Assembly: GCF_054482595.1 (NCBI RefSeq)
Contig: NZ_CM137008.1
Reading direction: 5' to 3' (one strand)
Length of the DNA stretch: 64,000 bases
Below are positions 33,059 through 35,428 of the stretch, piece by piece. Every line of letters starts with the position of its first letter. Position 1 is the first letter of the stretch. Position numbers and translations under genes: made by a program. Below the pieces are notes generated by a model. The model worked only from the letters and a program-made list of their open reading frames with translations. It was not told the origin of the DNA and ran no database searches.

Positions 33059-33751
33059 CTAGTGATAACCACGCGCGGTCATAAAATCCGTAATCGCTTT
33101 TTCTGCATCAATCAGCACCTGTTCCAGTGGCTGATTGGCGTCGATATCAACCAGTTGTGCACCACCAAAGGTTAACTGTGGCGTTATGGCTATCTTTCTT
33201 GCCAGCGATTCCCGTTTATGGTCGGGTTTACGCATGCAGGCAACTTCAAGGTCAACATTGAGTTTGATGACCAGATCAGGCTTATGGCTCGCCATCCAGT
33301 GAAACGCTTTACGTTCCTGGCTTGCCAGCCATGAGACAAAACGACCACCTTCAACGTTAGGTGGGAACACCGTACCATCGTAAGCGCCAGGAATTTGGTC
33401 CTGAGGATAACGGTCGGTTAGAACAATTAACCCGCGACGACGACAGGCAAGCATATGACGAAAGCGCAGTAAGCGACGGGCGACAAACGCTGTAATTACC
33501 AGCGCCGGAACTGGTCCAGGCAATTTTTTTGCTGTTTTCACCTGATTTCGTTCAATTGTTTTATGTAAGGATTTTCCCATCAACGGTAATTTTGTCACTG
33601 CACGACCGACATTTCCGGCTTGTTTTCCTAAATGAACTCTTTCGGCAGCACCATATTTTTCGACAACGGTAATGAGATGTTCACACACCGTTGACTTGCC
33701 TGAACCATCGCTACCAATAACGGCAATTAATGGAGGTGTTATTGACTGCAT
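33059..33751 (-). CDS. yghT: P-loop NTPase, thymidylate-kinase-like fold, function unknown
   Basis: 230 aa; Walker [16 protein letters not shown] motif, RKPDHK motif; paralogous to the next two genes. Confidence 0.8.
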
Positions 33752-33924
33752 GAATATATCCTTAAATTTAAATATCCATCCAAAATATTTATTTGGTTAA
33801 TATGTTTTTATGAAAGCGTAATTCAGGTCAATGTCACAATTAACCATTGTCACAATAAGGTTGAACGGATATTCTGAGCACGGACCACGTAATATTCAAT
33901 ACATTATTTACTGCCGGGTTTTTC

Positions 33925-34638
33925 GTGAATCAACGTAATATGTCAATAATTAATTCCACGCCAGTGCGTGTTATTGCCATTGTAGGATGTGATGGTTCAG
34001 GTAAATCGACCCTCACGGCAAGCCTGGTAAATGAACTGGCAGCAAGAATGCCAACAGAACGCATTTATCTCGGGCAATCGTCCGGGCGAATTGGCGAATG
34101 GATTTCACAGCTCCCTGTTATTGGCGCACCTTTTGGGCGTTATCTGCGAAGTAAAGCGGCACATGTGCACGAAAAGCCCTCAACACCGCCTGGCAATATT
34201 ACTGCGCTGGTTATCTATCTGCTTTCCTGCTGGCGGGCGTACAAGTTTCGCAAAATGTTGTGTAGAAGCCAGCAAGGCCATCTGCTCATCACCGACCGCT
34301 ACCCGCAGGTTGAAGTGCCGGGTTTTCGCTTTGATGGCCCGCAATTGGCAAAAACCACGGGCGGTAACGGTTGGATAAAAATGTTAAGGCAGCGCGAGTT
34401 GAAGCTGTACCAATGGATGGCGTCTTATTTACCCGTATTGTTGATTCGTCTTGGCATTGATGAACAAACCGCGTTTGCGCGTAAACCTGACCACCAACTG
34501 GCAGCGTTACAGGAAAAAATCGCCGTTACGCCGCAACTGACATTCAATGGCGCAAAGATCCTTGAACTGGATGGTCGGCAACCAGCCGATGAAATTCTGC
34601 AAGCGTCACTACGCGCAATTCACGCCGCGCTTTCCTGA
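33925..34638 (+). CDS. yghS: P-loop NTPase, thymidylate-kinase-like fold, function unknown
   Basis: 237 aa; Walker A GCDGSGKST, ITDRYP, ARKPDHQ. Confidence 0.8.
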   Translation: MNQRNMSIINSTPVRVIAIVGCDGSGKSTLTASLVNELAARMPTERIYLGQSSGRIGEWISQLPVIGAPFGRYLRSKAAHVHEKPSTPPGNITALVIYLLSCWRAYKFRKMLCRSQQGHLLITDRYPQVEVPGFRFDGPQLAKTTGGNGWIKMLRQRELKLYQWMASYLPVLLIRLGIDEQTAFARKPDHQLAALQEKIAVTPQLTFNGAKILELDGRQPADEILQASLRAIHAALS

Positions 34639-34669
34639 TCACCAAAATGGATAGGGGATGATTTAACGA

Positions 34670-35428
34670 ATGGATGCACTACAAACACAAACTGTTATTA
34701 GTACAACCGCGCCGCAGCCCAACTACATTCCGGGGCTGATTGCGGTGGTCGGGTGTGATGGCACCGGTAAATCCACGCTGACCACCGACCTGGTGAAATC
34801 GCTGCAACAACACTGGCAAACCGAGCGCCGCTATTTGGGGCTGCTCTCCGGCGAAGACGGCGACAAAATCAAACGATTGCCGTTGGTTGGCGTCTGGCTG
34901 GAACGGCGACTGGCGGCCAAATCCTCGAAAACCCAAAGCATGAAAACCAAATCTCCGGCGCTATGGGCGGCGGTGATTATGTACTGCTTCTCGCTGCGAA
35001 GAATGGCGAATCTACGCAAGGTTCAGCGACTGGCGCAAAGTGGCGTTCTGGTGGTCAGCGATCGCTTCCCGCAGGCTGAAATTTCGGGCTTTTATTATGA
35101 CGGACCGGGGATCGGCGTCGAACGTGCGACCGGGAAAATAAGCATGTTTCTGGCGCAGCGCGAACGGCGTTTATACCAACAAATGGCGCAATATCGCCCG
35201 GAATTAATTATTCGCCTGGGCATTGATATTGAGACTGCCATCTCCCGCAAGCCTGACCATGACTATGCCGAGCTGCAGGACAAAATCAGTGTTATGTCGA
35301 CGATTGGCTATAACGGCACAAAAATTCTTGAGATTGATTCCAGAGCGCCCTACAGCGAAGTGCTGGAACAGGCACAGAAGGCGGTTTCTCTGGTTGCCAT
35401 CGTTTCTGACCGCCGAAGTTTAACTTAA
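34670..35428 (+). CDS. yghR: P-loop NTPase, thymidylate-kinase-like fold, function unknown
   Basis: 252 aa; Walker A GCDGTGKST, VSDRFP, SRKPDHD. Confidence 0.8.
   Translation: MDALQTQTVISTTAPQPNYIPGLIAVVGCDGTGKSTLTTDLVKSLQQHWQTERRYLGLLSGEDGDKIKRLPLVGVWLERRLAAKSSKTQSMKTKSPALWAAVIMYCFSLRRMANLRKVQRLAQSGVLVVSDRFPQAEISGFYYDGPGIGVERATGKISMFLAQRERRLYQQMAQYRPELIIRLGIDIETAISRKPDHDYAELQDKISVMSTIGYNGTKILEIDSRAPYSEVLEQAQKAVSLVAIVSDRRSLT

Follow-up and report, generated by a model that had tools for sequence, protein, structure and literature searches.

Three thymidylate-kinase-like paralogs, YghR, YghS and YghT, at an Escherichia coli sphingolipid locus as possible lipid head-group kinases

The DNA stretch analyzed here (64,000 nucleotides of contig NZ_CM137008.1, RefSeq assembly GCF_054482595.1; the window) is Escherichia coli DNA, and at the positions compared with strain XH990 (33059-35428 and 36823-44542) the two sequences are 100% identical. 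It carries three genes coding for P-loop proteins: yghT (33059-33751, minus strand; 230 amino acids (aa), isoelectric point (pI) 9.9), yghS (33925-34638, plus strand; 237 aa, pI 9.9) and yghR (34670-35428, plus strand; 252 aa, pI 9.6). Their open reading frames (ORFs) are 100% identical to the RefSeq yghT, yghS and yghR homologues of E. coli XH990. The gene order is gss-pitB, yghT, yghS-yghR-yghQ and further genes, and then glcC. As a preliminary description of the window had stated, one of the three genes is divergent and two are in tandem. That description also had them flanking the flippase gene yghQ (35474-36823, plus strand; a 449-aa MOP, Wzx-like flippase), but all three lie on the same side of it (yghT <- -> yghS yghR yghQ). 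The yghT/yghS spacer (33752-33924; 173 bp, AT-rich, GC 0.38) is presumed to be a shared promoter region. In a scan for promoters and terminators, the match counts were no higher than in shuffled sequence, and the single weak promoter-like match in this spacer was not above chance. For K-12, an FlhDC site detected by systematic evolution of ligands by exponential enrichment (SELEX) has been reported for the yghT-yghS spacer, and SlyA has been reported to induce yghS.

Pairwise BLASTP comparisons gave 37% identity for YghT and YghS (E = 1.5e-53), 34% for YghT and YghR (E = 2e-47) and 45% for YghS and YghR (E = 8e-64), i.e., a similarity far above chance that identifies the three proteins as paralogs, in agreement with the preliminary description. 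The Walker A motif, G(C/S)DG(S/T)GKST, was located at residues 13, 21 and 28, and the RKPDH motif at residues 174, 186 and 193, of YghT, YghS and YghR, respectively, so both previously listed motifs are present in all three. The DR(Y/F)P motif is likewise present (residues 113, 124 and 131), but it stands about 100 residues beyond Walker A rather than at the distance of about 90 residues given before.

An alignment of 133 family sequences (A2) was used as input for an AlphaFold2 model of YghR, which was obtained with a predicted local distance difference test score (pLDDT) of 90.9 and a predicted template modeling score (pTM) of 0.86. Thymidylate kinases (Tmk) dominated the Foldseek search of the PDB with this model (best E = 2.5e-7), and the best 14 matches of the family profile to PDB sequences were all Tmk (top E = 4e-9). 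The profile alignment pairs the P-loop (Asp included) and the DRY motif of the family with those of Tmk; it also places invariant R93 opposite the Arg of the Tmk helix “LLFSANR” and the segment “PDLvirLnvd..tA..R” opposite the Tmk strand and lid. Judging from the Foldseek matches and the profile alignments, YghR, YghS and YghT are thymidylate-kinase-like in predicted fold and catalytic layout, with the P-loop, DRY/DRH motif and lid of the Tmk fold all found, and the earlier assignment to this fold, rather than to an unrelated P-loop family, holds. Two further ideas were considered and rejected. The long helix of YghR (residues 98-123), a candidate membrane anchor, aligns to the Tmk acceptor helix “LLFSANR...”, and an anti-phage role was dropped after PADLOC defense models gave P-loop-level matches only.

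From the first K-12 genome sequence onward, all three proteins have been annotated as “putative ATP-binding proteins”; two of them, YghS and YghT, now carry the RefSeq product name “dTMP kinase”. With TIGR00041, whose cut-off is 83.25 bits, the three kinases scored 24.4, 22.1 and 32.4 bits, and with NF005923 (cut-off 193 bits) they scored 17-25 bits. Pfam searches with each kinase returned generic P-loop noise and nothing significant (best Thymidylate_kin i-E-value 0.05-0.4). Identity to Tmk (PF02223, TIGR00041) is only about 17-19%. The segment that follows DRY, PQxExPGxxxDG with invariant P116, Q117, G122, D125 and G126, is specific to the YghRST family, as is the lid motif RKPDH. The corresponding Tmk segment, of the SxxAYQ type, recognizes thymine and deoxyribose; judged from the sequence alignment, it is replaced in YghRST. 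The acceptor-side region is also longer than that of Tmk and strongly basic. Since the scores fall below the cut-offs, the post-DRY segment is replaced and the proteins are so basic, the sequences do not support the name “dTMP kinase” for yghS and yghT. Within the thymidylate-kinase fold, YghRST appear instead to form a separate and strongly basic branch, and the view of the preliminary description that they are not nucleotide kinases stands.

One could still suppose that these are genuine dTMP or nucleoside monophosphate (NMP) kinases that supply nucleotides for an activated head-group donor. The RefSeq label, the Tmk fold and best sequence matches, and a Phe of YghT aligned with the Tmk Phe that stacks on thymine would all agree with such a role. 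We nevertheless consider it extremely improbable. Besides the scores far under the curated cut-offs and the replaced post-DRY segment, the pI of about 10 and the acceptor-segment charge of +8 to +15 are unlike those usual for Tmk, E. coli carries an essential canonical tmk elsewhere in the genome, and no nucleotidyltransferase is found in the annotated E. coli locus. Furthermore, nucleotide supply would hardly explain three co-conserved paralogs, which stand among envelope-lipid genes and not among DNA-precursor genes.

The net charge of the acceptor-side segment, between strand 2 and DRY, is +15, +8 and +10 in E. coli YghT, YghS and YghR, respectively, and averages +14.6, +8.9 and +8.4 among their orthologues, whose pI is 9.6-10. 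Such a strongly basic acceptor side would point to a polyanionic acceptor.

A single scan of 100,044 species genomes yielded 79 loci, in which T, S and R were assigned by tblastn and ORF analysis. Separate T, S and R orthologues at least 50% identical to the E. coli proteins were found in Enterobacterales, Xanthomonadales (Dyella, Rhodanobacter, Luteibacter), Betaproteobacteria (Methylotenera, Rhodocyclaceae), Halieaceae and other marine Gammaproteobacteria, and one Myxococcales metagenome-assembled genome (MAG). On a Desulfuromusa contig, T and S were found at the very edge, and T alone is present in Candidatus Nitrotoga and some other Betaproteobacteria. The yghS and yghR orthologues adjoin on the same strand in the loci listed. 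That of yghT, the most widespread of the three, is often divergent and often alone with a CHAD-like gene. With separate orthologues spread this widely, the triplication is ancient; mean identity is about 0.6 inside the T, S and R groups and 0.35-0.43 across them.

Conservation was analyzed in groups of 87 (T), 65 (S) and 65 (R) sequences. The P-loop, R93, G107, DRxPQ, G122, D125-G126, E146, P158, D167, A171, RKPDH and K186 are at least 90% conserved in each group, and D113 and R114 are 100% conserved in all three. Positions 40-53, on the acceptor side, contain invariant residues that differ between the T, S and R groups. All three paralogs are thus apparently catalytically competent, and, since the motifs are kept in every group while the residues at positions 40-53 are group-specific, the alignments fit three enzymes with three specificities better than one enzyme with decayed copies.

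Natural fusions were also found. YghS and YghR are fused in P0121, which is encoded inside an spt (serine palmitoyltransferase) locus beside a YghT and a CHAD-like gene; P0122 and P0123 are T-R-like fusions; P0223 joins a MOP flippase, an NTP_transf_5-like domain and a kinase; and P0257 joins a GT4 glycosyltransferase and a kinase. Many proteins of 490-510 aa consist of an N-terminal domain of about 260 aa, with a weak NTP_transf_5 match, and a kinase, and are encoded in Wzx/Wzy/GT4 polysaccharide loci. These distant fusion-type relatives have no CHAD-like gene nearby, from which it follows that the CHAD link is specific to the YghRST subfamily. Distant NTP_transf_5-like fusions in L081 (5721-12048) and L082 stand between a Wzx-type flippase gene and GT4/Wzy genes, with ATP-sulfurylase and sulfotransferase genes nearby; they look like a separate, polysaccharide-linked family branch lacking the CHAD-like partner.

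The flippase fusion P0223, the kinase genes that adjoin a flippase gene in the distant polysaccharide loci too and the lack of an LptB paralog in the locus raise the question of whether YghRST are ATPase or regulatory partners that energize or gate YghQ, or that replace LptB on the LptF2/G2 permeases described below. This appears very unlikely. The acceptor apparatus of NMP kinases (the DRY Arg, R93 and the RK of the lid) is invariant in T, S and R, the fold is not of the ATP-binding cassette (ABC) type, and Caulobacter LptF2/G2 rely on the housekeeping LptB. ATP is not known to drive MOP flippases.

The gene next to yghQ, orf274 (36823-37647, plus strand; 274 aa), is annotated as hypothetical in the sources and has no Pfam, NCBIfam or PDB sequence match; the Pfam CHAD profile (PF05235) matched neither the window protein nor any of 42 homologues. 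Its predicted structure (pLDDT 94.3) has the CHAD helical fold, which was identified by fold search only, and we therefore describe orf274 as a protein of predicted CHAD fold of the polyphosphate-binding type. The alignment contains the invariant basic/His motifs RARYKHLRFA, LGxxQD, FHDVRK and NGLMGxxHD, and R60, R88, K92, H93, R95, H105, H193, R196 and H237 are invariant. CHAD domains are inorganic-polyphosphate-binding modules encoded in operons with polyphosphate kinases or phosphatases (10.1101/567040). Across Proteobacteria, orf274 is the most constant neighbor of yghRST. A relationship between orf274 and the ~260-aa N-terminal domain of the kinase fusions was considered and rejected (hhalign probability 0.5%).

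The gene context was counted in the 54 loci that are flanked by 8 kb or more on either side; as the species lack phylogenetic independence, the numbers serve for description only. S and R were both present, i.e., the full triplet was co-located, in 49 of the 54, an orf274 homologue in 46, a flippase in 35 and LptF2/G2 in 30. The preliminary description had proposed checking co-occurrence of the triplet with the serine palmitoyltransferase gene. It was observed within 10 kb in 42 of the 49 full-triplet loci and was missing in six, from Halieaceae/Pseudomonadales, a Gammaproteobacteria MAG and a Myxococcales MAG, which lack any ceramide gene in that range; in a seventh, L023, spt is out of range and cerR, aasR and yghO are at the edge of the locus. 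The tightest conserved partners are the CHAD-fold protein, the MOP flippase and LptF2/G2, not serine palmitoyltransferase. In Halioglobus japonicus, the entire module is an island between aroK and aroB, made up of lptG2, the flippase gene, a CHAD-like gene, lptF2, an LptA-like gene, R, S, T and a PAP2 gene.

Outside enterics, further genes accompany the kinases. An ICMT/PEMT-type membrane methyltransferase is encoded directly upstream of yghT in 11 loci (L045:9057-9974, with homologues in L058, L059, L060, L069, L070, L071, L073, L075, L078 and L079). Its best NCBIfam match, below cut-off, is LmtA, the lipid A 1-phosphate O-methyltransferase (E = 4e-32). The end of the LmtA-like gene coincides with the start of yghT or is separated from it by no more than about 30 nt, which suggests methylation of the phosphate of the kinase product. 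A small, secreted PAP2 phosphatase with the motifs KX6RP, PSGH and RX5HX3D is encoded in 23 loci (L072:10768-11310 and 22 others), in many non-enteric ones directly downstream of yghT; its top matches are LpxE, with weak similarity below cut-off. An LptA-like gene occurs in 6 loci and a GT4 glycosyltransferase gene in 7. These accessory genes point to lipid-phosphate chemistry. Two more observations concern the lipid itself. In the spt-less Halieaceae module, a protein of roughly 408 aa that matches nothing in NCBIfam is conserved (L072:5061-6287; L049:1224-2465; L051:2628-3839); it is a candidate supplier enzyme for an alternative lipid substrate. In L085, the locus of a fused YghS-YghR, a protein of the Asp/Arg-hydroxylase family, which includes LpxO, is encoded beside spt genes (7418-8188) and hints at a hydroxylated acyl chain on the lipid.

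In the window, orf274 is followed on the plus strand by a gene for a YtfJ-family periplasmic protein (start 37656 or 37659, end 38219; NCBIfam TIGR01626, 213 bits, above cut-off), lptF2 (38250-39320) and lptG2 (39317-40396). With gaps of 31, 45, -1 and 8-11 nt and the lptF2/lptG2 overlap, yghS-yghR-yghQ-orf274-ytfJ-like-lptF2-lptG2 look like a single operon. The YtfJ-family protein, whose signal peptide was judged by eye, is an accessory of the enterobacterial form of the locus; it is encoded inside the Enterobacterales operon, with an LptA-like protein in its stead in the marine Gammaproteobacteria version, and may be a periplasmic hand-off component. LptF2 and LptG2 score 319 and 306 bits, above the NCBIfam equivalog cut-offs, and RefSeq names their genes lptF and lptG and the product “LPS export ABC transporter permease”. 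They are, however, encoded inside the sphingolipid locus, and by analogy with the Caulobacter pair their cargo is probably sphingolipid and not lipopolysaccharide (LPS). On the other side of the kinases, pitB and yghT converge, and the space between them contains a hairpin with a 13-bp stem and a T-run on the plus strand (33019-33049), the one notable match of the promoter and terminator scan; it may plausibly terminate pitB, possibly both genes. The pitB gene adjoins the module in 11 of the 79 loci, all in Escherichia and close relatives.

The ceramide genes lie further downstream. These are, on the minus strand, spt (40431-41603; NCBIfam NF047599, 599 bits, above cut-off), acpR for a dedicated acyl carrier protein (41603-41851), cerR/epi for an NAD-dependent reductase of the ceramide pathway (41883-42797) and aasR for an acyl-ACP synthetase (fatty acyl-AMP ligase; 42794-44482), and, on the plus strand, yghO for the N-acyltransferase of ceramide synthesis (44879-46021; “aca” in PMC9386255). 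The five ceramide genes of E. coli BL21 have already been studied (PMC9386255), and the locus of E. coli UTI89 has been drawn as a sphingolipid locus (bioRxiv 10.64898/2026.04.12.717747). In the literature, these two publications included, we found no functional assignment of yghR, yghS or yghT, which agrees with the statement of the preliminary description that their function in E. coli is not established.

In MG1655, an IS5 element (IS5LO) takes the place of orf274, the ytfJ-like gene, lptF2, lptG2, spt, acpR, cerR and aasR; it truncates yghQ and abuts yghO (NC_000913.3 3129043-3132408; window equivalent about 36400-44900). Because this deletion removed the partner genes, K-12 is the wrong strain for the study of yghRST. 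The K-12 annotation of yghO is “putative DNA-binding transcriptional regulator”; in the literature it is a ceramide N-acyltransferase. The module is present in about 75-85% of complete E. coli genomes, BL21 and uropathogenic strains included. Of 5,426 such genomes, 4,604 have the kinase triplet over at least 80% of its length, and in 4,066 the orf274-aasR segment is present to the same extent. As to conservation apart from the lipid genes, a point raised in the preliminary description, at least 538 E. coli genomes, K-12 among them, hold the triplet and lack the complete lipid segment; IS5 deletion as the cause of the loss is shown for K-12.

Considering the paralogy, the fold, the retained motifs, the basic acceptor side, the synteny, the fusions and the CHAD fold of the partner together, we tentatively favor a reading that we hold at slightly less than even confidence. 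YghR, YghS and YghT would act as ATP-dependent kinases and furnish ceramide or another exported lipid with a phosphate-rich head group, in part by transfer of phosphate onto phosphate, giving an anionic lipid rich in pyro- or oligophosphate. At the cytoplasmic face, the three kinases would add phosphates to the ceramide head group, or to that of another exported lipid where spt is absent. Some of the steps would probably place phosphate on phosphate (P to PP to PPP), following the logic by which nucleosides become nucleoside triphosphates (NTPs) and that of the polyphosphate kinase PPK3 discussed below. The CHAD-fold orf274 would bind the phosphate chain or scaffold the kinases, YghQ would flip the phosphorylated lipid, and LptF2/G2 would, with LptB as in Caulobacter, extract it toward the outer membrane. 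The proposal of the preliminary description that these are lipid head-group kinases is upheld insofar as the context indicates lipid-phosphate chemistry; the nearest precedent, however, is PPK3 and not a classical lipid kinase.

Several points weigh against the reading just given. We found no published description of the lipid that this locus produces in E. coli. For Caulobacter, a periplasmic location of CerR has been reported (PMC11087976), which complicates the question of which intermediate a cytoplasmic kinase meets. If spt is not elsewhere in their genomes, the six spt-less loci among 49 mean that ceramide is not the universal substrate. The CHAD assignment of orf274 is a prediction made from fold and not from sequence profiles, and the basic surface could reflect binding to anionic membranes and not a polyphosphate-like substrate. 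As the E. coli locus has no known enzyme for the first phosphorylation of ceramide, such as a CpgB-type kinase, one paralog would have to be a hydroxyl kinase, and no invariant acidic residue marks a general base on the acceptor side. Finally, K-12 knock-outs have no clear phenotype, but K-12 is without the partner genes.

In one alternative, each paralog phosphorylates a different hydroxyl, for example those at C1 and C3 of the long-chain base and one that belongs to the acyl chain or to a sugar, and the product is a multiply monophosphorylated lipid similar to bis-phosphorylated lipid A, free of phosphoanhydride bonds. We regard this as rather unlikely. The family profile aligns best with thymidylate kinases of the NMP type, and R93 and the DRY Arg, whose Tmk counterparts clamp the acceptor phosphate, are both retained. 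There is no invariant acceptor-side Glu/Asp equivalent to the catalytic base of deoxynucleoside kinases, and the constant CHAD-fold partner would be left unexplained.

A bolder version of our favored reading, namely that E. coli (in about three quarters of its complete genomes) and many other Proteobacteria make a previously unseen outer-membrane ceramide or related lipid with a pyro-, oligo- or short polyphosphate head group, must be regarded as doubtful. It would involve a three-kinase relay from hydroxyl to P, PP and PPP or longer, with the CHAD-fold partner binding the chain, the Wzx-like flippase flipping the lipid and LptF2/G2-LptB exporting it. Should this prove true, the cell surface would carry polyphosphate anchored to a lipid, and the PPK3-type exaptation of thymidylate kinases would have a second offshoot, bacterial and lipid-directed. 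What is new here is the recognition of the CHAD-fold protein as a constant partner and, as proposed, a non-nucleotide use of the Tmk-fold kinase. In the module, ceramide synthesis is coupled with a flippase and with an exporter of the LPS type, and an anionic outer-membrane sphingolipid would bear on the envelope barrier, resistance to cationic antimicrobials and host recognition.

Three known systems invite comparison with YghRST. The first is the lipid A pathway, to which the likeness is one of analogy. LpxK is a P-loop kinase that acts on a membrane lipid, LpxT makes a lipid 1-diphosphate, and phosphate is removed by LpxE, a PAP2 enzyme, or methylated by LmtA, just as PAP2 and LmtA-like genes stand by non-enteric yghT. 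The differences are that LpxK is not among the top 60 structural matches of the YghR model, that the PAP2 and LmtA-like proteins score under the family cut-offs, and that the lipid is probably ceramide-based and not a glucosamine disaccharide.

The second is the Caulobacter CPG/CPG2 pathway (CpgB, CpgA/C/D and LptF2/G2/C2), which has a locus logic in common with E. coli: ceramide genes are combined with cytoplasmic enzymes for the head group, a kinase among them, and with dedicated paralogs of LptF/G. The UTI89 locus has been depicted as homologous (bioRxiv 10.64898/2026.04.12.717747). Caulobacter LptF2/G2 are required for sphingolipid transport and work with LptB (bioRxiv 10.64898/2026.04.12.717747). 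The annotated E. coli locus, however, has no equivalents of cpgA, cpgC and cpgD and has instead three Tmk-fold kinases, a CHAD-fold protein, a MOP flippase and a YtfJ-family protein; given these differences, the E. coli head group is probably a different one. The Caulobacter ceramide kinase CpgB is of the LCB5/diacylglycerol (DAG)-kinase type with a GGDG motif (PMC10331486), a fold unrelated to that of the P-loop, Tmk-fold YghRST, in which the features of DAG kinases were not found. The comparison with the Caulobacter ceramide kinase drawn in the preliminary description therefore reduces to an analogy.

The third is the archaeal/bacterial enzyme PPK3, in Sulfolobus acidocaldarius a heteromeric polyphosphate kinase composed of two “thymidylate kinases”, Saci_2019 and Saci_2020, and encoded in the operon sixA-ppx-cPPK3-rPPK3-CHAD (PMC12995831). 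Its dTMP-binding residues are not conserved, its cleft is positively charged, its regulatory subunit has lost the DRx arginine, the solved S. tokodaii structure 2plr/5h70 is a cPPK3 homologue, and most organisms with PPK3 lack PPK1 and PPK2 (PMC12995831). YghRST resemble PPK3 in that several paralogs of Tmk fold are encoded together, in the CHAD partner and in the basic acceptor side. One may therefore ask whether YghRST are themselves a soluble PPK3-like heteromer for the synthesis of polyphosphate from ATP or for the regeneration of NTP at the expense of polyphosphate, the CHAD-fold protein being the polyphosphate binder and the adjacency of lipid and export genes a matter of co-regulation or phosphate supply. 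In our estimation this is improbable. There are three Ygh proteins and two PPK3 subunits, and all three keep the DRx arginine; ppx, sixA and pst were not seen in the annotated loci (E. coli and two non-enteric ones); the match of the family profile to canonical Tmk (4e-9) is stronger than that to the cPPK3 homologue 2plr (5e-4); and the hosts of YghRST, E. coli included, have PPK1. The flippase, LptF2/G2, serine palmitoyltransferase, PAP2 and LmtA-like partners have no counterpart in the PPK3 operon, and these partners and the flippase fusion would be left unexplained. The orf274 link nevertheless connects the module, by analogy, to the PPK3 type of polyphosphate kinase, and PPK3, which is not a family that YghRST are shown to join, is the nearest precedent for how they may work.

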